Below the pieces are notes generated by a model. It made no database searches. It saw only the letters and a program-made list of their open reading frames with translations, and was not told the origin of the DNA. Below are positions 48 to 27,359 of a DNA stretch of 64,000 bases, one piece after another. Numbering within the stretch: position 1 is the stretch's first letter; each line of letters opens with the position of its first letter. A program made the position numbers and the translations under genes. This stretch comes from Thermoplasmata archaeon (lineage in GTDB: Archaea; Thermoplasmatota; Thermoplasmata; Lutacidiplasmatales; UBA184), in the NCBI GenBank assembly GCA_028864975.1, contig JAGWLG010000007.1, positions 1-64,000 on the forward strand. The letters run 5' to 3'.

Positions 48-1727
48 ATGAGTTGGCACCTGGAGTTCCGCACCATCGATGGGAACCGGTACCTCTACCT
101 CTGCGAGAAGCGGAGGACCGAGAAGGGGCCCCGGAACGTCCAGCAGATCTATGTGGGCACCGCCGAAACCCTCCTCCGCAAGCTCTCGAGCCCCGGCGAG
201 CCCCTGCGATCCTTCGAGTTCGGCAAGATGGCCGCCCTCCTTCACGCAGCCAAGGAGACCGGCCTCCTCGAGGCGTTCCAGCGCCACGTCCCTCGCCGCC
301 CCCTCGACGAGTACGCCGTCGAGCAGCTCCTCTTCCTCCAGCTCGCCGGTCGGGTGGAACGACCCCTGAGCCGGGATGAGATGGCCGACTGGCTCCCCGA
401 CTCGGCCCTCCCGTTCCTTCTCCCTGACCTCGGTCACCCCTCGGCCCGGACCCTCCGCCGTCACCTCAAGCGCCTCTACGGGAACGGGGAGAAGGAGGAG
501 CGAGGGAGGGGCTTGCTCACCCGCGCCGTCGTCCACCGGATCGAGGAGGACGTCTTCCGGACCCTGGTGAAGAAGGGGATCGATCCGCGCCTCCTCCTCT
601 TCGACACCACGAACTTCTTCGTCGACCACCAAGCCGGACTCTTCCCCGCCCGAGGGCACTCGAAGGAGAAACGGTACGACAAGCGGCTCGTCGGTCTCGG
701 GCTGGTCACGGTGGGCACCATGCCGGTCCTCACCGAGGTCTACCCGGGCAACGAGGGGGACGCCAAGGTGTTCGCCCGGGTGTTCGACGCCCTGGTGAAG
801 CGTCTGGTCGACCTGGAGGTGGCCACGGAGAAGATGATCGTGGTCTTCGACCGGGGGATCAACTCCGAACCCAACTTCGAGATGGTGCGAGGGGCGATGC
901 ACGTCATCGCTGCCCTGAACCGCCAGCAGGCGGCGAAGCTCTTCCGGCTCGAGCTCTCCGAGTTCCAGGAGGTGGCCAAGGACGCGGAGGGGAACCCCGT
1001 CCTGGGGTTCTCTACGCGATGGTTCGGGTTCGAGCAGGACTGGCGGGTGCTCGTAACCTACCGAAGAGCGAGCGCCGAACACCAGCAGAAGACCTGGGAG
1101 GATGTGCGGGCTCGGGTCCTTGCGCGAGCCCAGGAGTGGCGGGACCACCCCGCGGCAAAGGAGAAGACGCTCTGGCGGAAGATCGCCCAAGTCATCCCGC
1201 GGGGCTTCCAGTCGGAGTTTGAGGTGAAGGTGGAGGAGGTCCCGGTGACCCGACGTGGGAGGCCCGCCACGGCTTACCGACCCCACATCCGAGTCCTACC
1301 GAGGGCGGAGGCCCGTCTGCGGGCCTCCTTCGGCAAGACGGCCATCATCTCCGACCTGAACGTCGAGGAGCTCTCGCACCGAGCGCTGGTGGAGGGGTTC
1401 GTGGCCCGGGACCAGATCGAGCAGGACTTCCGGTGGCTGAAGGACCGGTATGTGGTCTCGGCCAAGCCGTTCCACGTCTGGCACGACGCGACGGTGCCCG
1501 GCCACCTGTTCCTGTGCGCGATGGGGCTCCTGCTGCTCCGCTACCTTCAGTGGGAGATGCGGGCCCAGGACCTGTCGATGAAGGAGCTGGTGGAGGCGCT
1601 CGAAGCGATCAAGGTGGTCTTGGTGAGAACCACGGAGGGGAAGCCGCGGCTGGTCCTCGAGAAGATGGGACGGGAGGAGGCCCAGGTGTTCACCGGGCTC
1701 AAGCTGGACCAGATGATTCCCGCGTAA
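48..1727 (+). mobile_element. IS1634-family DDE transposase
   Basis: 559 aa. N-terminus (FRTIDGNRYLYLCEKRR...QQIYVG) is typical of IS1634. DDE motifs are FDTT, FDRG and IEQDFRWLK. A weak imperfect inverted repeat pairs 24-42 with 1762-1778; the true ends are uncertain. Confidence 0.9.
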
Positions 1728-2345: not shown

Positions 2346-2651
2346 TCACCCCCGAGCGGGTTCACAGGTCCGCATCGGGCACCCGCGCCCCCTCGCGTCC
2401 CACCTGTCCCCCTCCCTGACGCACCCGCAGGGCGTCCTCGCCGCGTCTCCCCCTTCTGCGAACGACTCGAGCGTCACCGCGGGCTTGGGCCATCGGTAGT
2501 GGGGCCCCAGAAGGGCCCGGTGCGCCGGGCAGGTGCACTCGCTGATGTTCCAACCCCCTCCCACCTTCTCGCAGCCACAGGGGGCCCTCTTGGGGGCGCA
2601 GACGCCCCCGCTCGCGGTCCGAAGAACCTCCAGGACGGGCTGGCCCACCAC
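2346..2651 (-). CDS. Small Cys-rich protein; N-terminus is a Cdc6 wHTH remnant (QPVLEVLRTASG), followed by two PCGC-x-W-x-C motifs
   Basis: Motifs APCGCEKVGGGWNISECTCPAH and TPCGCVREGDRWDARGRGCPMRTC. DNA at 2613-2646 closely matches 7571-7603. Confidence 0.5.
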   Translation of the reverse strand: MVGQPVLEVLRTASGGVCAPKRAPCGCEKVGGGWNISECTCPAHRALLGPHYRWPKPAVTLESFAEGGDAARTPCGCVREGDRWDARGRGCPMRTCEPARG

Positions 2652-2654
2652 CCA

Positions 2655-3431
2655 CTATCGCGCCGTCGCCTGGGCGCGCTCGACCGCGGCTTTCACCCGG
2701 GGTGGGAGACCCTCCGTGGACACCCGCTGGAGGAAGACCGTCCCATCGGGTCGCAGGAGTTCGTCGGGCCTGGCGCTCTTTCGTACCTGCTGGGCAACGG
2801 CCAGCATGACCTCCAAGGCGGAATCGGGCCGCGGGGGGTGGAGCTGTTTCCGCTGCCACTCGCGGTAGCTCTTGAGATCCCAGGCGAGGAACCCGAGGGC
2901 GGCAACCACCAGGGCCAGCCCTAGGGGGAGCGCGAACCCGCCCGTGGCCTTCCCAGCAGCCCCAGGATGGACGAGGGCGTCCGCGGAGATCGCCGCGCCC
3001 GTAGCCAGGATGCCGAGGCTCCAGGCCATCTGCCCCAGGTGGCCCGCCCGGGACTTCGTAATGAGACCCGTCGCCCCGATGGCTTGCGAGAGCTTCAGGA
3101 CGTCCGCCATCGTGGGGGCGTCCCCGCCGAGCAGGCCCAAGTAGAGGGTCCGAGCACAGGCATCCGAGAATTCGTCCGCGCGGACAAGTCGGCGCAACCG
3201 CTTCCTCTCGCGGGGGGTGAGAGGAGTCTCTTGGGGGCCCGCGGCTTGGGCGATCTCGCGGACGCGCCCCGGGGTGAATACCAGCTCGACCGCGTGGAGC
3301 ATGCGGGGTGCGGTGCGGTCGGTGTCCACGTAGCTCCCGAAGATGCACTGGGCGACGCGGTGCTCGTCCGTCCGCGATTGGAGGAGCGGGCGGCGAGCAT
3401 CGAGGAAGGACTTGGCGGCAGGGAGAGCCAT
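2655..3431 (-). CDS. Hypothetical membrane protein (about 2 TM helices)
   Basis: 258 aa with hydrophobic stretches (MAWSLGILATGAAI; LPLGLALVVAALGFLAW). Confidence 0.6.
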   Translation of the reverse strand: MALPAAKSFLDARRPLLQSRTDEHRVAQCIFGSYVDTDRTAPRMLHAVELVFTPGRVREIAQAAGPQETPLTPRERKRLRRLVRADEFSDACARTLYLGLLGGDAPTMADVLKLSQAIGATGLITKSRAGHLGQMAWSLGILATGAAISADALVHPGAAGKATGGFALPLGLALVVAALGFLAWDLKSYREWQRKQLHPPRPDSALEVMLAVAQQVRKSARPDELLRPDGTVFLQRVSTEGLPPRVKAAVERAQATAR

Positions 3432-3551
3432 GCGCCATCAGCAATGACGCGCCTCAAGCATGAGCGTATGGGAGAACGGTGCTCGCCTCCCCGCGCCCCG
3501 GCAAGCCTCACCCCGATAGGGAGATGTTCCGGGACGGCGATTCCCCGAGCG

Positions 3552-4118
3552 ATGTCCCTCTTCGGGAGGCCCACACCCCCGCCACTGAGCTTCCGCGAGC
3601 GGGAGGCGGAGATCGAGCGTTGCGCGAAGGAGGCGCTCCTCCTGGAGGCGCGCTTCAATCGCCCCATCGCGAAGAACGACCTCTTCTTGAAGCTCCACAT
3701 CCCGTTCGAGCTCCTCGACCGCGTCACTCGGGCTATCTCGAGGGATGTCCGGGTGGACCTCGCACTCCTCGGCTCCTCAGAGCGCGACCGCTTGGAGCGG
3801 GAGAGCCACGACGTGATCGTTCGCGCTCTCGCGGAGCGGGCGAAGCCAATCGAGAAGAGGGGGCTCACGCTGGCCGACGTGGCGGTGCTGAGTCCACCGA
3901 ACCGCTCGTTGGTGGACCTTCAGCGCCTCTTCGGTTACATGCGGGCTGTGCTGGAACTCAAGGAACTCCCTCCCCGCATCGCGATGCCGTCGGAGGTCTC
4001 TCGGCTACTTCCGAGGGCGGCCGCCCTCCCCGCCGATGAACGGACCCCGTTCCGCCTCGTCAGGGACCTCGACGTCGGAATCTACACGGCGAGGCTCGTG
4101 AAGGCGGCCCTGGGGTGA
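3552..4118 (+). CDS. Hypothetical helical protein, first gene of a 3-gene operon
   Basis: ATG at 3552 (MSLFGRP). Composition is protein-like only from here within the longer ORF. The stop lies 3 nt before the next ATG. Confidence 0.6.
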   Translation: MSLFGRPTPPPLSFREREAEIERCAKEALLLEARFNRPIAKNDLFLKLHIPFELLDRVTRAISRDVRVDLALLGSSERDRLERESHDVIVRALAERAKPIEKRGLTLADVAVLSPPNRSLVDLQRLFGYMRAVLELKELPPRIAMPSEVSRLLPRAAALPADERTPFRLVRDLDVGIYTARLVKAALG

Positions 4119-4121
4119 CCC

Positions 4122-4892
4122 ATGACGGAGCAATTCAAGTTCGGATGGCGACCGACGGTCGAGGGGCTACTTGCCCACGCCGAGGGGCACTTCATCCACG
4201 TACGGGCAGCTTACGCAGTGCGGCCGGTCACGAAGATTGTCAGCGAGGGGGATAGTGGGGCCTTCCCGGTCACGATCTCTGAACCGGAGGTGCCTCCTCG
4301 GAGCATCCAGCTCTCTACCGCCATCGAGACGAAACACATTCTAGAGGACTTGAGGTCGGTCTTCGACCATTCGGCGGTCTACCTGGCGAGGGAAGTTCTC
4401 CTGCAGCCGGTGATCGCCAAGACGAACTCGATGTTGGGTACCGATGGGGCGAGCTTCCCTATCTCAGCCGACGAAGAGGGGTGGAAGAGCGAGATCGGCC
4501 GGATTCCCTGGAACGTGGCCGGCCCGAAGACGTTGGCCTTCCTCCAATCCTTCCAGCCCTTCGTGGACCCCCCGAAGAACGGCTGGCTCCGGGTGCTACA
4601 CAACTTGGTCAACGAGAACAAACACAGTTCACTGACGGAGTTCTTTGTCCAGCCTTCGGACGATCGGCTGTCGTTCCGACGGGGCGAGTACACTTACAGC
4701 TTGGAGGTCCTCTCGTTGACGATCCCTAGCGCGAAGCTCGCTCGGGATGGAGCGACCAGGAATCCCGTCCCGGACGCGTGGACCTTTTTCGACGAGGCGT
4801 TCGCGGGGACCAGGAAGTTCATCGAAGCGGTCGCGGCCGCCGTGCCTGAGCTTCGGAAGGAGAGCCGGGCGAATGGCGGGAAGGCAGTCTGA
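4122..4892 (+). CDS. Putative HEPN-like protein
   Basis: Motif series LEDLRSVFDH...FPI...QPF...LHNLVNENKH resembles HEPN-like helical families with an N-x-x-KH variant of the R-x4-6-H motif. Confidence 0.5.
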   Translation: MTEQFKFGWRPTVEGLLAHAEGHFIHVRAAYAVRPVTKIVSEGDSGAFPVTISEPEVPPRSIQLSTAIETKHILEDLRSVFDHSAVYLAREVLLQPVIAKTNSMLGTDGASFPISADEEGWKSEIGRIPWNVAGPKTLAFLQSFQPFVDPPKNGWLRVLHNLVNENKHSSLTEFFVQPSDDRLSFRRGEYTYSLEVLSLTIPSAKLARDGATRNPVPDAWTFFDEAFAGTRKFIEAVAAAVPELRKESRANGGKAV

Positions 4893-4903
4893 GCCGGTTC
4901 TCG

Positions 4904-5641
4904 GTGGGGCGGCGTCGGGGTGGGTCGGTGAAGGTCACTCCGGAGGCTGACGGGCTGCACCTCGTCGGCGGGCTCTTGTCGAAGAAGGAAAAGGTCGTTC
5001 CCTGGAGCTGGCTCGCGGTGGTCCGCGACGAGGGCGGGCCGCTCTCGAGCCTCCGAATGTTCTACGTCGACCCCGCGGACCCGGGGGACAAGAAGGAGAT
5101 TGAACCCCCGCGAGGGGAGATCGCCGGAATCCTGGGACACTCGAGCTTCCCGCGTGAGCTCGTCTTGCCCGCGACGGCGAAGCGGTTCGGACTGGAGCCT
5201 GGACGCGTGGAGGGGTACGGGCCACCCCTCGGGACCCCATGGCTCGCGGGACCTAAGGTCGGACTCGGCAGGAATAGCCCGGATGACCAGCTGGTGGCCC
5301 TCGTGCTCAAGTCCTTCCCGAAGGTCCTCCAGGGTGGTTTCATCGGAACGACGGATGTCGCTCCGTTCGATCGCGGGGTCGCGTTTCAGAACGGAAGTGA
5401 CAACAACGAAGTGGCCCGTTGGGAGGCCATATCCCCCTCGCGGCTCCCTGCCCCGAACTGTGTCTACTGGATCTCGCTATTCGGACCCGCCGATACGGAC
5501 GAGATGTACGGATTCGCGCTCACCTTGGACCAAGCGCGGGCGCTCGTCTCGCACCCTTCGGCGGCGGTCTGGGACCTCCCTGACACGGTCTACTCCGTGC
5601 TCAACGCGAGCCGACCGGAGAAGCCGCTACGCTCAGGCTGA
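4904..5641 (+). CDS. Hypothetical protein (alternative GTG start at 4928)
   Basis: 245-aa ORF in operon. No family recognised. Confidence 0.55.
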   Translation: MGRRRGGSVKVTPEADGLHLVGGLLSKKEKVVPWSWLAVVRDEGGPLSSLRMFYVDPADPGDKKEIEPPRGEIAGILGHSSFPRELVLPATAKRFGLEPGRVEGYGPPLGTPWLAGPKVGLGRNSPDDQLVALVLKSFPKVLQGGFIGTTDVAPFDRGVAFQNGSDNNEVARWEAISPSRLPAPNCVYWISLFGPADTDEMYGFALTLDQARALVSHPSAAVWDLPDTVYSVLNASRPEKPLRSG

Positions 5642-5830
5642 TGAGGGTCGAGCTCCCGCCCGCTCCGCCGAGGCGGACCGCGTGGCGGAGGAGGCCCTTG
5701 CTCTCAAACGGGCGATGCGCCATGGGGGACGAAGGACCACGTCGGGCGGTGTGGCCTTCGAGCCGCACGTCCACCAGGTGGACAGGTGTTCGGGAAGGAC
5801 CCGAGCCTCTCCAGCACAGCTGAAGAGGAC
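5600..5830 (-). pseudogene. Frameshifted remnant of the Cdc6 C-terminal winged helix
   Basis: Minus strand encodes FESKGLLRHAVRLGGAGGSSTLISLS, and AVLERLGSFP in another frame. DNA 5634-5665 aligns with 8511-8541. Confidence 0.7.
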
Positions 5831-5869
5831 GCGAACGGAGATATCCAGGGTCCGCGCTAGCTCTCTCTC

Positions 5870-7258
5870 ATGATGGATGGCCCCCGGCTCCGGACGGGCG
5901 CCGCCGTGGTCGTCGTGGGCGCGCTGATCGTGGCGGGGTTCAGCACACTCCTCTATGGTGAGTGGGTCTCCGCACAACCTGACCCCTGGGCAGAGGTCGT
6001 CGGTAGCGTCAACGTGCAGGGATGGGGAAGTTTCGGGAACGTGGTCTACGACCCTGTGAACCGGCAAGTCTACGTGGACAGCGCTAGGCCCGGCTCCTGG
6101 TACCCCGGACAGAACGTCACCATCTTGAACCCGGCCACAGGGAGGATTGTGGGATCGGTCCCCGCCGGGCCGGAGCCCGCCGCAATGACGGTGGACACGC
6201 GGAACGGAAACGTCCTCGTCGCGGACTCAAGCTCGGCCTACGGCGGCTGGGCCGAACGTTTCAACATCACGGAGCTGAGCGGAAGCAACAACACTCCGCT
6301 CTGGAGCACGCCCCTGGACTTCATCCCCAGTGCACTGGCCTTCGACCCGGTCAACGGGCTCGTTTACGTGGGGGGGTATGGTAATCCTTCGTTCGCGAAC
6401 CTGACGGTCCTGGACCCGGCGACGGGGGAGATCGTAGCCGAGACGCGAGGGGAAGCGAGCGCGGTCGCCGTCGACCCGGCGATGGGGTTGGTCCTCTTCG
6501 CGAACACGACGCGCGGGCCCCCCACGGTCATGGTCATGGACGGGAACACTCAGCGGCTTGTGAAGAATGTCACGACCGGGACCGAACCTTGGGGGTATGC
6601 CTCGCCGTCGATGGCGTACGACCCCCAGACGGGCGAGATTTTCGAATCCGGCGTCTCCCTTTCGAACGTGCGGAGGGCATCCTTCTCGGTCTTCAATGCG
6701 ACCTCGGGGTTTGTCGCGGCCTCGGACGTTCCTCTGCCCGGGGAAGACGGGATAGGAGCGAGCATCGTGTACGATGGACAGAACGGACGACTGTACGCCC
6801 TGGGGTGGGAATGCGGTGGGGGTTCGTCCGGGAGTGGGTGCGTGATCGCGATCGATGGAAGGACGCACGCGATCTTGGGCACGGTACCGGTGGGCTCTGA
6901 ACCCAACAGTATCGCCTTCGACCCCCAGAACGGGGACCTCTACCTCTCCGACTCCGGAGGGGCGAGAGTTTGGTTCGTCTCGACGCAGGCGGCGGCCCCG
7001 CCTCCCCTGACCTCTCTTCCGAACGCTTCGGGGCTCCTCCTGGGACTGGCGTTGGGTGTCGTGCTCGTCGCTGTCGGCGCGCGAGAGATGTGGGCGGGTC
7101 GCCAGGGCGGGGAGCACCGAGTCCCCGAATGGGTCCGTGCCGCCGAGCGGGCGGAAGAGCGTGCGAGCCGGACGCTCTTCGAGAAGCCCTCGACGTGGTT
7201 TTTGATGACGCTCACGGTCCTGGGTGCGATCCTGCTCCTGGCCCTCCTCGCGGGATGA
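5870..7258 (+). CDS. Membrane-anchored YVTN/YncE-type beta-propeller surface protein
   Basis: N-terminal hydrophobic segment, repeated (A/V)(F/Y)DPxNGxxYV blades (VPAGPEP, VPVGSEP), and C-terminal TM helices. Confidence 0.85.
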   Translation: MMDGPRLRTGAAVVVVGALIVAGFSTLLYGEWVSAQPDPWAEVVGSVNVQGWGSFGNVVYDPVNRQVYVDSARPGSWYPGQNVTILNPATGRIVGSVPAGPEPAAMTVDTRNGNVLVADSSSAYGGWAERFNITELSGSNNTPLWSTPLDFIPSALAFDPVNGLVYVGGYGNPSFANLTVLDPATGEIVAETRGEASAVAVDPAMGLVLFANTTRGPPTVMVMDGNTQRLVKNVTTGTEPWGYASPSMAYDPQTGEIFESGVSLSNVRRASFSVFNATSGFVAASDVPLPGEDGIGASIVYDGQNGRLYALGWECGGGSSGSGCVIAIDGRTHAILGTVPVGSEPNSIAFDPQNGDLYLSDSGGARVWFVSTQAAAPPPLTSLPNASGLLLGLALGVVLVAVGAREMWAGRQGGEHRVPEWVRAAERAEERASRTLFEKPSTWFLMTLTVLGAILLLALLAG

Positions 7259-7260
7259 CC

Positions 7261-7283
7261 GAGGTCGACCGGTGGTCGGCCTC
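7261..7283 (+). terminator. GC hairpin immediately after the beta-propeller stop
   Basis: gaggtcgacc-ggt-ggtcggcctc, 9 of 10 stem positions complementary. No U-tract. Confidence 0.3.
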
Positions 7284-7354
7284 CATGTAGTCGTCCTGAA
7301 CGCCTAGTTTCCGCCCCCCTTGTCGCCTTTGGAGGGTATGGAGCGCCATCCCAG

Positions 7355-7654
7355 TCATGGGTCACCGGGTTGAGGCCACCGCCTCGCCAGAAAGATCTGC
7401 GTCCCACGTCCCCCTGTTCCACCGACGCGGACTTCACGGGTGACCCTCCCGAACCTTTCGACGCGAACCAGGTGCCGCCACAGGCGGGCCTGGGTCGGGG
7501 CGCGCATCCCCGAAGACGTGCATTCCTCGCCGACGCGGCGGCGGAGCTCCCCCGCCGTGATGCTGCCGGTCGCGGTCCGCAGAACCTCGAGGATGGCCTG
7601 GCCAAAGCCCTCGGCGTTCGGGCCGTGCTTCGTGAGGTTCGGCGGGACCGCCAC
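7355..7654 (-). CDS. Stand-alone Cdc6-type winged-helix module (copy)
   Basis: AILEVLRTATG...ARLWRHLVRVERFGRVTREVRVGGTGG matches the C-terminus of 9565-10836. Homology continues in frame to about 7700 (RAEARGG). Confidence 0.7.
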   Translation of the reverse strand: MAVPPNLTKHGPNAEGFGQAILEVLRTATGSITAGELRRRVGEECTSSGMRAPTQARLWRHLVRVERFGRVTREVRVGGTGGRGTQIFLARRWPQPGDP

Positions 7655-7726
7655 GTCCTCGGCCTCGTGCCAGCCGCCCCCGCGGGCCTCGGCCCGCGGG
7701 GTGTCCTCGGGGGGGGCCGGGGGGGT

Positions 7727-8461
7727 CTATCCGGCCTCTGACGGTAGCGGTGGCCCGGCCCCTTCGAGAAGCTCCGTCGGGACCTTCTCGATCCCCGGGA
7801 CGCGCTCTGGCCCCAGCACCTCGAGGTCGCCGAGATCGACCGACTCCACTTGGACGCCCCACTTCCGGGCCTCCGGGCGGGCGAGGTCCCGCACGCGCTC
7901 ACCGAGCCGCCCCCGGTCCTTGACGACCTCACGGATGGGGGTCCGTTTCAGCTCCTCTTCGAGGCGAGAGGCGACCAGCGCGGCCGTGGCGAGCCGGTAT
8001 TCCTGGACCTTGATTATGGCGGCGACGGGGTCGGCGACCTTGAAGTAGAGCTTCCCCCCGAGGAGGGCGCGGATACCATCGGAGGTCCGGCCCTCGTACT
8101 TCGTGAGTGGTCGCTCTTGCGTCCGCAGGTCCACACGGATGACGTGGGCGAGAGGGTTCACGATGCGGAACCCCGGAGCGACGGCGCCCTGGAACTTCCC
8201 CAGGACGAAGACGAGCCCCGTCTCGTACGGGTGGATCGCCTGCATCCCGTGGAAGAACGTCACGACGAGGAGGAGGGCGAAGAGCCAGGAGAGCACCGCG
8301 AAGGTCGATAGGCTGGGCGTGAGGAGGAGCACCAAGACCCCGAGCGCGAGGAGCATGAGGATCGACACGACGAGGGCGATGGCGCCCCCGCGCCACGTAT
8401 AGGCGGGAGGACCGGACAGGGTCGGGGGAGCCGTCAAAGGGGAAAGGGCTCCCGCGACCAC
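7727..8461 (-). CDS. SPFH/band-7 (stomatin-like) membrane protein
   Basis: Two TM helices, then IHPYETGLVFVLGKF...PGFRIVNP...VDLRTQ...VADP...WGVQVESV. Likely GTG start at 8461 after GAGGGA. Confidence 0.85.
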   Translation of the reverse strand: MVAGALSPLTAPPTLSGPPAYTWRGGAIALVVSILMLLALGVLVLLLTPSLSTFAVLSWLFALLLVVTFFHGMQAIHPYETGLVFVLGKFQGAVAPGFRIVNPLAHVIRVDLRTQERPLTKYEGRTSDGIRALLGGKLYFKVADPVAAIIKVQEYRLATAALVASRLEEELKRTPIREVVKDRGRLGERVRDLARPEARKWGVQVESVDLGDLEVLGPERVPGIEKVPTELLEGAGPPLPSEAG

Positions 8462-8469
8462 GTGTCCCT

Positions 8470-8850
8470 CTACGGCGGAGGGGAGACAAAGCCTTGCCGT
8501 CCGCTGGTGAGGCTGACGAGGGCCGAGCTCCCGCCCGCTCCTCCCATCCTGACCTCCCGGCGAACGACACCTTTCCGCTCGAGCCCTACGAGGTGCCGCC
8601 AGAGCCGCGCCTGCGTCGGGGGGCGGAGTCCGAGCGCCGCGCAGCGGGCTTCGACTCGTCGGCGAACTTCCCCGACGGCCAAGGGTCCGTTGGAGTTTCG
8701 AAGGACTTCCAGGATGGTCGCGCCGAACCCCTCGGCGTCGACGCCGTGGCGCGGGACGTGGGGCGGGAGCGCTACGTCGTCGACTTCGACTCGGGAGGCT
8801 CCCCGAGCCTCCGCCCGCCGGCCCGCCTCGCCGAGCAGCTCGCCGACCAT
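8470..8850 (-). CDS. Cdc6 C-terminal fragment (lid end plus winged helix; copy)
   Basis: MVGELLGEAGRRAEARG...ARLWRHLVGLERKGVVRREVRMGGAGGSS. Upstream in-frame SVAHGWGLS matches Cdc6 SVARGWGLS. Confidence 0.75.
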   Translation of the reverse strand: MVGELLGEAGRRAEARGASRVEVDDVALPPHVPRHGVDAEGFGATILEVLRNSNGPLAVGEVRRRVEARCAALGLRPPTQARLWRHLVGLERKGVVRREVRMGGAGGSSALVSLTSGRQGFVSPPP

Positions 8851-9010
8851 CGAGAGGCCCCAGCCGTGGGCGACGGAGGCGAGGGGACCCCGATCCGAGA
8901 GAACTGACCGAGAGACTGAGGCCCGGGTCCCCGAGCGAGGACCCGTCGGCGGTCTGGAGGACCAGCCGCATGGGTCCGAAAGGCGGGCGATGGCCGCGCC
9001 CTTGAGCCGC

Positions 9011-9562
9011 TCAGGCGAGGGGCAGTGAGGACTTGGGGGAGGTCTTCCACTGCTCGTAACTCTCCTGGAACCGCTGCATGTTTTCGCGGGTCAGGACCGT
9101 CGAACTCGTTGGCATGGTCCTGCTCCCCTTCGGAGGTGCAGGCTCGACCTTCCAGCTCACGAGAGGTGGCAGGAACCCGCCGTGGCGGACCTGCTGTATC
9201 CGCTCGAAAGGTACCTCCACCGCCTCCCGGGGGGCCCTACTGCCCTTGGAGAGCGGGTGGAGCCACACGGTCATCGACCGAGGGCCGAACTCCACTGGAT
9301 CGGCACTTGCCGCTACGAAGGCGGGCGCCATCACGCGGCGCGTGAGCACCGGACCCCCGAGGATGCCGAGAACACTAAGAATTGCCAGGTCCGCCAGCCA
9401 CCCGAGGAGGGGGCTCAGGGGGGGAGTCAGCAGAGGCTCGACTACGCCGGAGAAGAGGACGGGAAGAACCACGAGGAGGAACGCCAGCAATGGAACCCCC
9501 ATGAGGTCCGCCCGGTCAAAGAAGCGGAGCACAATTGGACGAATGTCGTTCGGGTGGGGCAT
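9011..9562 (-). CDS. Hypothetical 2-TM membrane protein with soluble C-domain
   Basis: ATG lies 2 nt after the Cdc6 stop. TM segments LMGVPLLAFLLVVLPVLF and LLGWLADLAILSVLGIL. Confidence 0.7.
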   Translation of the reverse strand: MPHPNDIRPIVLRFFDRADLMGVPLLAFLLVVLPVLFSGVVEPLLTPPLSPLLGWLADLAILSVLGILGGPVLTRRVMAPAFVAASADPVEFGPRSMTVWLHPLSKGSRAPREAVEVPFERIQQVRHGGFLPPLVSWKVEPAPPKGSRTMPTSSTVLTRENMQRFQESYEQWKTSPKSSLPLA

Positions 9563-9564
9563 GA

Positions 9565-10836
9565 TCAGGCGAACGAATGATTGGCCATGAGAGTTCTGTC
9601 CTCCGAACGGCCTTCGGGAGTGAGCGAGACCTGGGTTGAGCTCCCACCTGCTCCGCCAACGCGGACCTCCCGTCGGACGATGCCCTTCCGTTCCAGGCCG
9701 ACCAAGTGCCGCCAAAGGCGCGCGGGGCTCGGCGCTGAGACCCCCTCGGCATGGCAACGCACTCTCAGGAGACGACCCAGTACTCCGACGGAAAGAGGCC
9801 CGGGAGACGCCCGTAGGGACTCGAGGACGAGGGGATCGAGCGGTCCACCCTCTCGGGCGGCGACCCGAAGGCCTGCCGGGACCCCGACATCCTGAGCTTC
9901 CACTCGGCTTGACCCGCGCGATTCCGCACGGCGCCCGGCCTCGAGAAGGAGGTCCCCTACGGCGGAAAGCCCCCAGCCTCTCGCCACGCTCAGGTCCGCG
10001 AAGGCATGAATGGCCGTGGGGTCCGGCTCTTGCCGGAATGCGAGGTTCGCGCGAACCTGGGTGGCTTGGCAGAGGTCGTGGTGATTGAGGGGGGACAGAC
10101 GGGACCGGACGGCCTCCACGTCCTCGGGAAAGGCATCGCGTTCACCAGCAGCCACCACGAGGAGCGGGGGGAGACCCGCGGCGCCCTCGGGCATCAGGCG
10201 CTCGGGCCGAGCGAGGGGCCGGACCACACGGGCGAGGTCAGCTTTCGCACCAACTTGGTCAAGTAGGAGGATGGCGGGCCGGCCCATCGTCCTCAAGCGC
10301 CGGAGGAAGAGGAGCAGGCCGAACTCGGCCGAGGCTCCTCGGCCGTCGTACGACGGGTCGAGCTCGCGGAAGAGGGCGGTGGCGAGGGACGCAGGCGACC
10401 TACCGCAACCCGAGCCCCCTGCGTCCCGAGCGAGGCCCGTGCCCGAGGGGATGACCCGAGGGGCAGGGCCGGCAACCAGGGCGCTCGGAGTGCGGTGGGT
10501 GGAGGCGTCGACATGGATGACCAGAGGTGCCCCCTTCGCCCCCGGCCGGGTCAGCCGGTCCTTCGCGGTGGCGACAAGGTGGGCGGCCATCGCCGAGGTC
10601 CCCGAGCCCTTCGGGCCGAAGATGGAGACAGCGACGCGTCCCTCGTGGGCCAGGCCCCGAAGGACTCGGGTCTCGACCTCGGAGAGGACCTCGTCGCGGC
10701 CGATGAGGGCGGGCGGCGTCCAGGAGCGCTCGAGGACCTGGAGGTCGCGCCAGAGCCCGGGGGTCGCTTCCTGGGAGACTCCCAGGTTGTGGTCGTTCTC
10801 GGTCTGGGCGTGGCTGATGGTAGGCGTTGCGGACAT
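9565..10836 (-). CDS. Divergent Cdc6/Orc1-like AAA+ protein with degenerate Walker motifs
   Basis: LQVLERSWTPPALIGRDE (Cdc6 N-terminal pattern), Walker A GPKGSGTS, Walker B LLLDQV, and a C-terminal wHTH. Confidence 0.8.
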   Translation of the reverse strand: MSATPTISHAQTENDHNLGVSQEATPGLWRDLQVLERSWTPPALIGRDEVLSEVETRVLRGLAHEGRVAVSIFGPKGSGTSAMAAHLVATAKDRLTRPGAKGAPLVIHVDASTHRTPSALVAGPAPRVIPSGTGLARDAGGSGCGRSPASLATALFRELDPSYDGRGASAEFGLLLFLRRLRTMGRPAILLLDQVGAKADLARVVRPLARPERLMPEGAAGLPPLLVVAAGERDAFPEDVEAVRSRLSPLNHHDLCQATQVRANLAFRQEPDPTAIHAFADLSVARGWGLSAVGDLLLEAGRRAESRGSSRVEAQDVGVPAGLRVAAREGGPLDPLVLESLRASPGPLSVGVLGRLLRVRCHAEGVSAPSPARLWRHLVGLERKGIVRREVRVGGAGGSSTQVSLTPEGRSEDRTLMANHSFA

Positions 10837-14002: not shown

Positions 14003-14566
14003 TCAGCTGAGCCCGGCAGAGCGCGCCCCCGCGCACACCGCGCCGAACGCGCACGTCCGGCACTTCCCCGGAGCGGGGTCCATCGCCCCTCGGTAGGGCT
14101 GCCGCCACTCCTCAAGCACACCGAGCACCTCGGCCCGCGCCTCATCGTCCCACCGGACGGGGATCTCCGTCCCGTCGCCGAAGGAGAGGACGCCGAAGGG
14201 CGGTGGGGCGCCGGTCGCTTCCTCCAGGAGCAGGCAGTAGGCGAGCAACTGGATCCGGTGGGAGGGGTAGGGCACCCCGCTTCGCGGCGCCCGGGTCGAT
14301 TTGATCTCGACGGGAACCAGCCGGCCGTCCCGCGAGCGGCGGAGCTCGTCGGGACGGCCTGAGAGGCGATAGCGGGGGGAGGAGAGTGTGCGCATGCCGC
14401 CGCCGAGGGACGGTTGGTCGACCGCGAGGGCGCGGGCGGGGGTGAGGACGGGAGGGTTGAAGAGGCGGTAGAGCGCCCATGCGGCGACGCCGACGAGCCC
14501 CAGGAAGAGCGCCGCGTAGACAACGTCGACCATGTCGACATTGTCGACAAAGTGGGCAATGTCCAC
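14003..14566 (-). CDS. Cas4-like PD-(D/E)XK nuclease, C-terminal half with N-terminal TM helix
   Basis: TM (VVYAALFLGLVGVAAWALY), then LSGRPDEL, VEIKS, QLLAYCLLLEE and CRTCAFGAVC. GTG at 14566 overlaps the upstream TAG. Confidence 0.85.
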   Translation of the reverse strand: MDIAHFVDNVDMVDVVYAALFLGLVGVAAWALYRLFNPPVLTPARALAVDQPSLGGGMRTLSSPRYRLSGRPDELRRSRDGRLVPVEIKSTRAPRSGVPYPSHRIQLLAYCLLLEEATGAPPPFGVLSFGDGTEIPVRWDDEARAEVLGVLEEWRQPYRGAMDPAPGKCRTCAFGAVCAGARSAGLS

Positions 14567-14856
14567 TAGAGCCACCCCAGGACGTAGGCGAGGCCCGCCC
14601 CGAGCGCGAGCGCGACCAGTAGCGCCGCCGCGTACGGCGCTCGCGACGCCTTGACCGGCATCGCGTCGACCGTCTCGATGCGCGCGTGGACCTCCTCCCC
14701 CCTGTAGAACGCCTCGACGGGGGGTCGATATTCCGCCCCCTCGGGGACGTCCTCGGGGTGGCGCTTCCAGTACCAGGCTCGCCTACAGTAGGCGAAGTCG
14801 CCGAGCTCCGAGGCGGTGGCCCAGGGGCCACCGCCGGGCCGGCCGTCCGTCTGCAC
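14566..14856 (-). CDS. Cas4-like N-terminal half with C-terminal TM helix
   Basis: TASELGDFAYCRRAWYW...RGEEVH matches the Cas4 N-terminus, followed by YAAALLVALALGAGLAYVLGWL-stop. Confidence 0.8.
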   Translation of the reverse strand: MQTDGRPGGGPWATASELGDFAYCRRAWYWKRHPEDVPEGAEYRPPVEAFYRGEEVHARIETVDAMPVKASRAPYAAALLVALALGAGLAYVLGWL

Positions 14857-24676: not shown

Positions 24677-24731
24677 CTGGCGGATGGGCGTCGCAGAGGA
24701 TTAAAGGGCGCAGGGGACCGCGACCTTCCCT

Positions 24732-24834
24732 GCTAGTTGCTGGGCGCACCGATACATCCTCGAGAGATGGGTGGAGGGGGGCCACCCATGGGGGCCATCC
24801 AAGTCCAGGTCGCGGAGATCGAAGACGAGGTCCG
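24732..24834 (+). repeat. Degenerate duplicate of the drg promoter and first 16 codons
   Basis: tgctgggcgcaccgata-x-atcctcgagaga is shared with 26203-26232. MGAIQVQVAEIEDEVR compares with MGVIEDQIAEIEDEIR. Confidence 0.85.
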
Positions 24835-25231
24835 AGAGGGTCGAGGAGGTCGTCCTGGCGGTCGAGAACGGCCAACTCACGGTCGATCAGACCGCGGACG
24901 CGGTCGCGAAACTGTTCCGTGCCTACCGCGCCAAGCGGCGGTAAAGCCCCTCGCGGTCCTGCATGTGGGTCCTGGGCCGGTCCATCATGGAAGCCCAGAC
25001 GAGGCTCGATAGGGCCGGAGGCGCCGGGACGATCTCACGTCTACGACCTTCCGCCGAGGGCGGTGGCTTTCGGGCCTTCGCCACGGCGCTCATGACACCA
25101 GGATACGGCCGCGCGTCCATAGGCAGGAACGGGGCGCCGCGCCCCGGGACTCGACGTCGGCCTCGCTCCCGTCACTCTCCCCCTCCACTCGAACCCCACC
25201 CTTCATACTCTCCCGTCTCGAACTCCTAGCC

Positions 25232-26113: not shown

Positions 26114-26249
26114 GCGCGGTGCGTCCCAGGGTCCTTGCCGCGGGGGCCCCCGCCCTTTGCCTCTCCCCTCCGCCCTGGTGGGGACCCACGTTCGCAGCTA
26201 GCTGCTGGGCGCACCGATAAATCCTCGAGAGAGAGCTGGAGGGGGGCGC

Positions 26250-27359
26250 ATGGGGGTTATCGAGGACCAGATCGCGGAGATCGAGGACGAGATCCGCAGG
26301 ACTCAGAAGAACAAGGCGACCAACGCCCACATCGGCCGGCTCAAGGCCAAGATCGCCTTGCTCCGGATCGCTCGGGAGAAGGCGGGGAAGGGCGGAGGAG
26401 GTGGTGGGCTCGGCTATGCGGTCCGCAAGAGCGGGCACGCGACCGTGGCCCTCGTCGGCTATCCCTCGGTCGGGAAGTCCACGCTCCTGACCCACCTCAC
26501 CGGGGCGGAGAGCGCGGCGGCGGCCTACGAGTTCACGACGACCACGATCATCCCCGGCATGCTCAGCTGGCGAGGGGCAGCCGTCCAGATCCTGGACATG
26601 CCCGGGCTGATCCCCGGGGCGAGCAAGGGTCGTGGGCGAGGCCGCGAGGTCATCTCGGTCGCTCGCGGAGCCGACCTCATCTTCTTCCTCCTCGACAAGG
26701 ACCACCTCGAGTTCCGCTCCCTGCTCGCCGAGCTCGAGCAGGCCGGCATACGGGTGAACGGGCGCCCTCCGAAGATCGTTGTGACCGCCTTGGAGCGAGG
26801 AGGCGTCGAGGTCCACAGCACCGTGAAACTGACCAAGATCGACATCGAAACGGCCCAGGGCATCGCGAAGGAGTTCCGGGTGCACAACGGTTCCATCGTG
26901 TTCCGGCAGGACGCGACCCCAGACGAGCTCATCGACGTCCTCGCCGGCAACCGGGTCTACATCCCCGGGATCCTCGTCATGAACAAGGCGGACCTCATTC
27001 CCGCCTCGGAGCGGCCTGCGATCGTCGCCAGGCTCTCGCCCTGGAAGCCGGTCTTTGTTTCGGCCCAGAAGGAGTCCGGGTTCTTAGAGCTCAAGGAGGC
27101 GATGTCCGAGGCGCTGGCCTTCATCCGGGTCTACGTGAAGCCGCCGGGGCAACCCCCCGACATGGCCGAGCCGGTCATCCTTCGCAAGGGCGACTCCGTC
27201 GATTCGCTTCTGAAGCGTCTCCCTCCGGAGCTGGGCCTTTCGTTCAAGTCCGCGCTGGTGTGGGGGAAGAGCGCGCGGTTCCCTGGTCAGACGGTCGGTC
27301 GTGAGCACTCCCTCGCGGACCAGGACATCGTAACCGTAACGATCCAACGCGGCGCGTAG
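26250..27359 (+). CDS. drg: DRG/Rbg1-family GTPase with TGS domain
   Basis: TQKNKAT, GYPSVGKST, YEFTT, DMPG and NKAD; C-terminal TGS. Confidence 0.95.
   Translation: MGVIEDQIAEIEDEIRRTQKNKATNAHIGRLKAKIALLRIAREKAGKGGGGGGLGYAVRKSGHATVALVGYPSVGKSTLLTHLTGAESAAAAYEFTTTTIIPGMLSWRGAAVQILDMPGLIPGASKGRGRGREVISVARGADLIFFLLDKDHLEFRSLLAELEQAGIRVNGRPPKIVVTALERGGVEVHSTVKLTKIDIETAQGIAKEFRVHNGSIVFRQDATPDELIDVLAGNRVYIPGILVMNKADLIPASERPAIVARLSPWKPVFVSAQKESGFLELKEAMSEALAFIRVYVKPPGQPPDMAEPVILRKGDSVDSLLKRLPPELGLSFKSALVWGKSARFPGQTVGREHSLADQDIVTVTIQRGA

Follow-up and report, generated by a model that had tools for sequence, protein, structure and literature searches.

In archaea, integrated elements are known both to carry Cdc6/Orc1 genes and to form arrays in which one site is used repeatedly (Krupovic et al. 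2019, PMC6563490). The locus described here is located at positions 2,346 to 10,836 of a 64,000-nucleotide (nt) stretch of DNA from a Thermoplasmata archaeon (GenBank assembly GCA_028864975.1, contig JAGWLG010000007.1, positions 1 to 64,000), which is termed the window. It contains a full-length Cdc6/Orc1-like gene and four separate copies, cp1 to cp4, of the 3' end of such a gene, which encodes a winged helix (wH), with other genes between these copies. The window, with 67% G+C, makes up the first 64 kb of contig C121 (124.8 kb), which belongs to a metagenome-assembled genome (MAG) of 3.6 Mb, 124 contigs and 90% completeness. Like the archaeal arrays of integrated elements, this locus contains related units arranged head-to-tail in a variable island, a hallmark protein of the Orc1/Cdc6 type and defence cargo, and the end of the drg gene is duplicated at the border of the island. 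Unlike these arrays, it has no visible integrase or attachment (att) repeats in the window, its older units are mostly represented by the 3' ends of Cdc6-like genes, and the Walker residues of its hallmark protein are lost. The best reading of the locus is that of a rather tidy but otherwise ordinary mobile-element graveyard, in which related mobile units have piled up directionally and eroded, at least one gene 3' end has been displaced, and paralogs have recombined with one another. We assign a rough probability of 0.55 to this reading.

The preliminary description of this DNA reported five wH copies, all on the minus strand, and each of them is found at or near the place reported. The full gene with its two unusual segments and the four separate copies are as follows.

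9565..10836, minus strand: full-length Cdc6/Orc1-like gene of 423 amino acids (aa) with a degenerate ATPase site (open reading frame, ORF).
10399..10473, minus strand: in-frame insertion of ~25 codons (residues 122-146), unique to the full gene of the window (relatives align in two pieces, which end at residue 121 and restart at residue 146).
9727..10086, minus strand: divergent in-gene patch, residues 251-370, covering the lid end and wH helices 1-2 (drop in nt identity; raised synonymous divergence, dS).
8851..9020, minus strand: cp1 leader, a decayed lid-coding remnant (AAIARLS) plus an insert of ~110 nt (matches the body of family genes).
8470..8850, minus strand: cp1, intact 126-aa ORF with the last lid helix and the complete wH (Cdc6_C, E=4.2e-7, 30.3 bits against a cut-off of 25.1 bits).
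7355..7696, minus strand: cp2, intact 99-aa wH ORF (7355-7654) with homology extending to 7696, of the 'type II' lineage (Cdc6_C, E=1.4e-5, 25.4 bits against 25.1 bits).
~5631..5765, minus strand: cp3, decayed wH 3' end of ~45 codons (nucleotide comparison and alignment).
2595..2645, minus strand: cp4, 17-codon relic of type II wH helix 1, beginning ILEVLRTA (GQPVLEVLRTASGGVCA).

The homology of cp1 to the family reaches upstream to ~9000. The motif ARLWRHLV..ER.G.V.REVR.GG.GG, which had been reported as common to the copies, is found in the full gene, cp1 and cp2. In cp3, a 6-codon deletion removes the LWRHLV core of the recognition helix, and stop codons are present upstream; its DNA is 76% identical to cp1 over 71 nt and 80% identical to the full gene over 55 nt. 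The DNA of cp4 is 82-87% identical to cp2 over 38-45 nt and 75% identical to a relic on contig C46 of the same genome, and its translation is 65% identical to type II genes. The integrity of the copies decreases with the distance from the full gene, from the 126-aa ORF through the 99-aa ORF and ~45 broken codons to 17 codons, as had been noticed at first, and the last copy indeed keeps a single helix, helix 1 of the wH. The visibly decaying copies of the family are cp3, cp4, the C46 relic and a copy in a relative (L039b).

Sequence comparison indicates that these copies are not serial duplicates of the adjacent gene. The aa identity of cp1 is 66% to paralogs on contigs C92 and C110 of the same genome and 77% to a gene of a related genome (G024:C314), as compared to 58% to the adjacent full gene. 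The aa identity of cp2 is 67-72% to C110 and G003:C20, as compared to 46% to the adjacent gene, and its nt identity is 79% to C110 and 83% to G010:C71. In the tree, cp2 is located in a type II clade, supported at 99/97, together with C110, G010:C71 and G003:C20, and cp1 is grouped with G024:C314 and a metagenomic ortholog (L036_frag). The wH of the adjacent gene is located outside a branch (96/90) that contains every other wH sequence. The preliminary description had named a failure of the copies to form a clade with the adjacent Cdc6-like gene as evidence against its proposal, and the trees do place cp1 and cp2 elsewhere. A local tandem duplication of the 3' end of this gene, followed by divergence, would account for direct, 5'-truncated copies beside one expressed-looking full gene. 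If these copies served as a silent store for gene conversion of the wH, as in Neisseria pilS and Borrelia vls, which likewise have 5'-truncated copies in one orientation beside one complete gene and a mosaic variable region, the variable patch (residues 319-370) between conserved segments and the mosaic wH would also be accounted for. However, cp1 and cp2 are closer to genes of other contigs or genomes (66-77% aa identity) than to the adjacent gene (46-58%). In addition, unlike in pilS and vls, unrelated genes are located between the copies and no donor-recipient match is found between the downstream copies and the in-gene patch, which shows 49% nt and 33% aa identity to cp1 and does not resemble cp2 or cp3; cp3, moreover, keeps its own conserved neighbours. 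A tandem duplication is very unlikely, and this explanation is already largely contradicted by the trees.

The copies cp2, cp3 and cp4 belong to the type II lineage, which is different from that of the N-terminal part of the resident gene. The neighbours of cp3 indicate how one of these copies has arisen. Two products of the three-gene operon that is convergent with cp3, those of 188 and 245 aa, are 76-79% identical to the products of genes that are convergent with an intact family gene in G010:C71 and L073. The DNA homology to G010:C71 is unbroken from the 245-aa gene into cp3, and cp3 aligns without interruption to the intact family gene there, at its 3' end. This result shows that cp3 was once a full gene, which was truncated in place while its own conserved neighbours were retained. 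The older junctions are better read as places where new family-bearing DNA abuts and truncates an older gene, because the lineage of cp2, cp3 and cp4 differs from that of the resident N-terminal part. Conserved neighbours were also sought for cp2, but the homolog in G003:C43 of the beta-propeller (NHL) gene that is convergent with cp2 has no adjoining family gene. The analysis shows that the five wH copies, including that of the full gene, are 3' ends derived from no fewer than three distinct family members, which arrived separately, rather than repeats of one gene.

All of the adjacent pairs of family copies that are seen (10 of 10; four in the window and the others in L036, L037, L038, L039, L066 and L071/L072) are arranged head-to-tail, although the pairs of L038 and L039 may count as one, because their fragment is identical. 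The L066 locus contains two intact family copies in the same orientation, 9.7 kb apart, and is a picture of an undecayed array. The 5' break points of the fragments differ among the copies, both here and in the relatives.

The copy cp1 probably has a different origin from cp2, cp3 and cp4. When the adjacent gene is compared to its relative in L066, its N-terminal part (residues 27-250) shows 73-79% nt identity, whereas its 3' part (residues 251-406) shows 60, 57, 47 and 62% by segment. In contrast, cp1, which corresponds to residues 283-406, shows 80, 77 and 71% nt identity to L066, while the in-gene end shows 57, 47 and 62% over the same segments. The nt identity of the full gene to C92 and L066 drops from 72-88% to 47-64% near residue 251, and the sliding identity profile against C92 breaks at approximately residues 251-266, where the homology of cp1 starts (the AAIARLS remnant in the leader). 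Thus, the adjacent gene probably once ended in cp1, which has been displaced by ~1.1 kb, because cp1 matches L066 as well as the N-terminal part does, while the in-gene end matches it far less. On the metagenome contig L036, the same architecture and the same identity pattern are found, but the gene that separates the displaced copy from the stop codon is another one. This intervening gene encodes a protein with two transmembrane (TM) helices on the same strand in the window and a multi-TM protein on the opposite strand in L036. The cp1 leader is also common to contigs L036 and L056, with perfectly kept sub-blocks of 29, 24 and ~55 nt, and its frame is broken by insertions and deletions. Most simply, the displacement of cp1 is a single old event common to two lineages. 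It would have occurred when DNA with a different lid and wH end and a membrane-protein gene recombined into the full gene near residue 250-268, as suggested by the segment identities, so that cp1 was pushed ~1.1 kb away.

This layout resembles that resulting from integration into the 3' end of a tRNA or protein gene with supply of a replacement end, in that the cognate end is found past an insert of ~1.1 kb and a different end completes the gene. It differs in that the insert is tiny and contains no integrase, that no identical core is present, that the replacement end is that of a diverged family member, and that the event is an old one common to L036. The preliminary description proposed that cargo was added repeatedly beside the cdc6 3' end, each event leaving a wH copy. 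This proposal fits cp1, according to the identities to L066 and the layout of L036, but not the other copies, according to their clades and the synteny of cp3. P0021 on contig L075 was considered as a further, third example of a displaced copy beside a divergent in-gene wH, but its wH is normal and no fragment is found downstream of it.

The wH region has a mosaic structure. In the comparison of the window with L036, the dS value of the in-gene patch (residues 319-370) is 2.3, as compared to 0.7 for the flanks. Between cp1 and its L036 ortholog, the dS value is 0.27 for residues 283-318 and 1.08 for residues 319-370, which is a 4-fold difference between neighbouring segments. In addition, L036 and L056 are identical over 189 nt, which cover the leader and approximately eight codons of the wH ORF, and their identity then drops abruptly to ~70%, although L056 is a 1.1-kb contig and possibly a chimeric assembly. 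These dS contrasts and the switch between L036 and L056 indicate an exchange of wH segments among paralogs, the break points of which fall in the conserved GWGLSMVGELL stretch. Both the trees and the selection tests are weakened by this exchange.

According to the reading that we prefer, the locus would be an accretion-and-erosion zone for a small, mobile or island-borne, lineage-specific family, the hallmark of which is an Orc1/Cdc6-like protein without the Walker A lysine and the Walker B glutamate. New DNA would enter directionally, because every adjacent pair of copies seen is head-to-tail, and the resident Cdc6-like gene would likely be the place of entry, through recombination at this gene or within it that is directed either by homology or by a trans-acting recombinase. 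The upstream parts of older units would afterwards be lost, and the swapping of wH segments between paralogs would produce the mosaic region. Several observations weigh against this reading. No recombinase is found in the window or on its contig, and no large serine recombinase is found in the 90%-complete assembly. The units of the window are not flanked by att-like direct repeats, nor are such repeats present between the intact pair of L066. The incongruence between the N- and C-terminal parts of the full gene is not significant alone (approximately unbiased test, p=0.095). The boundaries of the elements are undefined, because the contig ends in an insertion sequence (IS). The bias of the short ORFs of the family toward 3' fragments (~8 C-terminal versus 2 N-terminal) is only partly explained by erosion, and could reflect selection or a targeted mechanism. 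Finally, the sample is subject to ascertainment bias, in that a relic is visible only where a piece of the gene survives.

It had been noticed at first that no integrase is visible in the window, and the same holds for the whole contig. Tyrosine recombinases (PF00589) are absent from C121, with matches on contigs C73, C23 and C6; no integrase of the SSV type is found in the assembly; and the sole serine-recombinase match of the assembly is one small resolvase on contig C13. A crossover core shared by the five copies, for which the preliminary description had suggested alignment of the copies, is not detected by a search for direct and inverted repeats, by pairwise blastn of the copies with their flanks or by sliding conservation, all of which reveal only diverged coding homology. 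The best-conserved DNA stretches of the copies coincide with the best-conserved protein motifs. The cp1 leader was considered as a new att or RNA element and was rejected, since it consists of an insert and a decayed remnant of lid-coding sequence, with fold z-scores of -1.6 to -1.9, which are not significant. It is unique in the genome, and no more than weak, partial matches to it are found in 120 genomes of the taxonomic family. Exact-pattern scans for this leader in JGI metagenomes and GTDB contigs yielded nothing, or only a locus already known.

These results bear on the possibility that the locus is a dedicated cassette system, integron-like or of the att type, in which the lid/wH junction is the recombination site and cassettes bring cargo and sometimes a new wH that displaces the old one, giving an age-ordered array. 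Such a system would explain why cp1 acts as a displaced original 3' end, why the same junction carries a different cargo gene in L036, why five independent fragments begin within ~15 codons of the lid/wH boundary, why all copies are direct, why L036 and L056 change from 100% to ~70% identity about eight codons into the wH ORF, and why the integrity declines away from the full gene. The locus also resembles integrons (intI, attI and attC) in having short, ordered cargo units separated by a recurring sequence, with decay that grows with the distance. However, it has no IntI-type recombinase by the array and no attC-like structured site at each boundary, and its cassettes are not co-oriented, since the beta-propeller gene and the three-gene operon are encoded on the strand opposite to the wH copies. 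Its repeats are the diverged ends of genes of different lineages. Furthermore, the contig lacks an integrase, the conservation peaks of the copies are protein motifs rather than a shared core, the break points of cp2, L041 and L071 differ, cp3 is explained by truncation in place with its own neighbours, the type II lineage of cp2, cp3 and cp4 is not that of the resident N-terminal part, and the mosaic of L056 may result from chimeric assembly of its 1.1-kb contig. A dedicated cassette system is therefore improbable. The idea that the lid/wH boundary of the ATPase-dead Cdc6-like gene is a true recombination hot spot, at which cargo or DNA-binding ends are inserted or swapped by a recombinase in trans or by programmed gene conversion, is doubtful as well, and we consider its chance small. 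The displaced cognate end (cp1), the uniform head-to-tail order and the mosaic wH hint at targeted recombination, and if a hot spot did exist, the locus would be an archaeal cassette array with the end of a protein-coding gene as its attachment site.

The copies cp1 and cp2 encode complete wH domains and may act as free DNA-binding proteins. In the AlphaFold2 model of cp1, the wH is complete (residues 38-115, with a predicted confidence, pLDDT, of ~90), its recognition helix and wing are intact, and the leftover lid helix is disordered. A Foldseek search with this model gives matches to PadR-type regulators and to the wH domains of Orc1/Cdc6 proteins (2qby, 2v1u and 1fnn) with E values of ~3e-3. 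The cp1 orthologs P0001 and P0002 begin at the same MVGELL, so that three orthologous ORFs have a common start. The pairwise ratio of nonsynonymous to synonymous divergence (dN/dS) of cp1 is 0.19-0.24, which is equal to that of the full genes. This ratio was considered as proof that cp1 is functional, but it is undermined by the mosaicism of the wH; the selection test is confounded by recombination with full-length paralogs, because dS differs 4-fold within cp1. We take the odds that cp1 is functional to be roughly even.

It is thus conceivable that cp1, and perhaps cp2, have been kept as free DNA-binding proteins, either as regulators, as trans partners of the ATPase-like body or as decoys, and that the array persists through selection too. 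The complete fold of cp1 with its Orc1/Cdc6 matches, the common start of the three ORFs and the dN/dS values agree with this explanation, as do the family-typical identity of cp1 beside a strongly diverged in-gene wH patch and the tight packing of the genes on one strand from the Cdc6-like gene through cp2. However, only 7 short C-terminal forms, of 70-221 aa and with variable length and start, are found among 5.8 billion proteins, recombination with full genes could alone yield a low dN/dS, no promoter-like element is present upstream of the ORF, the Met at the start is conserved inside full genes too, and cp3, cp4, the C46 relic and L039b are plainly decaying. This explanation is rather unlikely, although it is not a negligible one.

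The full gene is only a remote relative of Orc1/Cdc6, as judged from its profile matches. It matches AAA_16 with an E value of 3.7e-4 and TIGR02928 with an E value of 3.6e-7, but its whole-protein score for TIGR02928 is 29.4 bits, far below the 181.3-bit cut-off of the Orc1/Cdc6 family. While cp1 and cp2 exceed the 25.1-bit cut-off for the wH of Orc1/Cdc6 initiators (PF09079), the wH of the full gene itself reaches only 18 bits. Its Walker A sequence is GPKGSGTS (GPRGSG[IT]S or GSRGAGTS in the paralogs), in which the catalytic lysine of the GxxGxGK[ST] consensus is absent, and its Walker B sequence is LLLDQV, in which, as in all four paralogs, DQ replaces the DE of the hhhhDE consensus, so that the glutamate is absent. 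The protein resembles canonical Orc1/Cdc6 (PDB 2qby and 2v1u) in the order of its AAA+-like body, lid and C-terminal wH, and the model of cp1 matches the wH of these proteins; it differs from them in its Walker A and B motifs, in which lysine and glutamate, respectively, have been replaced throughout the family. Even the 'intact' full gene may be degenerating, because its 25-codon insertion is lacking in all relatives. This insertion is located between the similar flanks RTPSALVA and RSPASLAT.

The same genome contains three further full-length paralogs, on contigs C92, C110 and C51, all with degenerate Walker motifs, in addition to the C46 relic, and two canonical orc1/cdc6 genes are located elsewhere in it, on contigs C29 and C119. 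The Cdc6-like family is present in all 24 other searched genomes of the same taxonomic family, a few of which contain multiple copies, and no member was detected in the sister taxonomic families searched. Among 5.8 billion proteins, 28 full-length members are found, all of which have GxxGxG[TI]S and DQ, and none of which is meaningfully named. Many copies of the family are located at contig ends. The usual upstream companion of the family genes is a split Cas4-like nuclease, found in the window, on C92 (18967-19688) and in L041, L054, L069 and L073, and, downstream, a convergent operon comprising three or four small genes is a usual neighbour. The split nuclease and the Walker-degenerate Cdc6-like gene may form a conserved two-part module. 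Large serine recombinases with Resolvase, Recombinase and Zn_ribbon domains are encoded 2-4 kb from a family gene on two JGI contigs (L068:13082-15022 and L069:14874-16955), and are candidate integrases of the Cdc6-like element family. These nearby recombinases, the Cas4-like and operon companions and the copies at contig ends indicate that the family is carried by mobile or island-borne elements. The family itself is new and unannotated, whereas the kind of locus, a relic array of integrated Cdc6-bearing elements, is already known. The locus thus defines a small Orc1/Cdc6-like family of high-GC archaeal MAGs, in which the catalytic residues of the ATPase are lost and which travels together with defence genes and a split Cas4-like nuclease. 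Relics of this family mark successive insertions, and help to delimit mobile DNA in archaeal MAGs and to avoid the naming of wH-only ORFs as replication proteins.

Two side observations concern wH fragments of other genomes. In L037:8320-9261, a wH fragment is fused in frame to ~170 residues of unrelated sequence in a called gene of 313 aa, which may be a chimeric ORF born of truncation. A 161-aa open frame containing a wH fragment is identical in L038 (G014:C34:23523-23945) and L039 (G010:C46:2505-2927), from genomes assigned to two different genera, and this identity points to a very recent transfer or to cross-binning.

The array is located in a variable island that spans positions ~1-26,000 of the window, and core genes (drg and ribosomal protein genes) follow from 26,250. 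In addition to the array, the island contains an IS1634 transposase, a SocA/RelE pair, type II and type I restriction-modification genes, a GIY-YIG protein and the split Cas4-like nuclease. Two of these features are given below.

48..1727, plus strand: IS1634-family transposase, at the contig end (NF033559, E=7e-60).
14003..14856, minus strand: split Cas4-like PD-(D/E)XK nuclease, two overlapping ORFs (PDDEXK_1, E=2e-10; Cas_Cas4, E=2.6e-7).

At the core-side border of the island, a sequence of ~110 nt from the promoter and 5' end of drg occurs twice, at ~24,725-24,835 and ~26,190-26,300, with ~85% identity, and these two copies bracket 1.35 kb. This duplication is a classic trace of integration at the 5' end of a gene, and indicates that the locus has received integrating DNA. 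Partial duplication of a target gene at junctions, as in tandem integrated elements, is found both for the drg 5' end and for cp1 as the probable cognate 3' end of the adjacent gene, displaced from it. It is clear that the array locus has taken up foreign DNA repeatedly.

An identical copy of the IS1634 element ends contig C116, and the array may continue past the assembly, beyond the IS at the contig end. Because the MAG consists of 124 contigs and this contig starts in an IS that also ends another one, it could be supposed that the repeats were made or collapsed by metagenome assembly. However, the same layouts are found in independent assemblies, and assemblers would not confuse the copies, because these share only 66-87% DNA identity and are separated by unique genes. 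An assembly artefact is extremely unlikely. A segment of ~50 nt directly 3' of the transposase gene (1763-1817), which has matches of 84-88% in three other genomes, is probably the IS end.

The genes between the copies are as follows.

9011..9562, minus strand: 183-aa protein with two TM helices (ATG 2 nt past the Cdc6-like stop codon; unique in the genome).
7727..8371, minus strand: membrane-anchored SPFH/Band-7 protein (Band_7, E=5.8e-21).
5870..7258, plus strand: membrane-anchored NHL/YVTN beta-propeller, convergent with cp2 (NHL, E=8.8e-8; NCBIfam beta-propeller matches).
3552..5641, plus strand: three-gene operon (188, 256 and 245 aa), convergent with cp3, a conserved companion of intact family genes elsewhere.
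2655..3431, minus strand: 258-aa membrane protein (coding pattern of G+C at third codon positions, GC3).

As regards an adjacent replication origin with ORB repeats, which would be expected of an Orc1/Cdc6 initiator, the spaces around the full gene are very short, 57 nt to the RelE gene and 2 nt to the 2-TM gene. Neither the 2-TM protein nor the 258-aa membrane protein, which is also unique in the genome, has a match in Pfam, NCBIfam or PADLOC; for the 2-TM protein, a weak lead to a bacterial PH-like domain is the only one. No PADLOC model of a defence system fits the Cdc6-like protein, the wH copies or the cargo. The 2-TM, SPFH and beta-propeller proteins that had been listed as cargo in the preliminary description are supported by this analysis. 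In contrast, the operon called HEPN-like there has no such match in Pfam, NCBIfam or PADLOC, and the ORF at 2346-2651 that was taken for a Cys-rich peptide, which shares part of its span with cp4 and does not pass the GC3 coding filter, is probably no real gene. The SPFH protein is only 31-35% identical to the products of the chromosomal, NfeD-linked SPFH genes of the relatives. The possibility that the 2-TM and SPFH genes are an NfeD-SPFH operon split by cp1 was rejected: NfeD-SPFH pairs are indeed found in the relatives, but the 2-TM protein does not resemble NfeD.

The 188-aa gene (3552-4118) has DNA matches, at 72-83% over ~120 nt, in 100 of 131 genomes of the taxonomic family; this tally includes three unpublished genomes (G044, G062 and G074), on which no specific claim rests. 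A second copy of this gene is present in the genome of the window (G000:C32:137356-137862), and its product is a widespread, conserved small protein without a family assignment.

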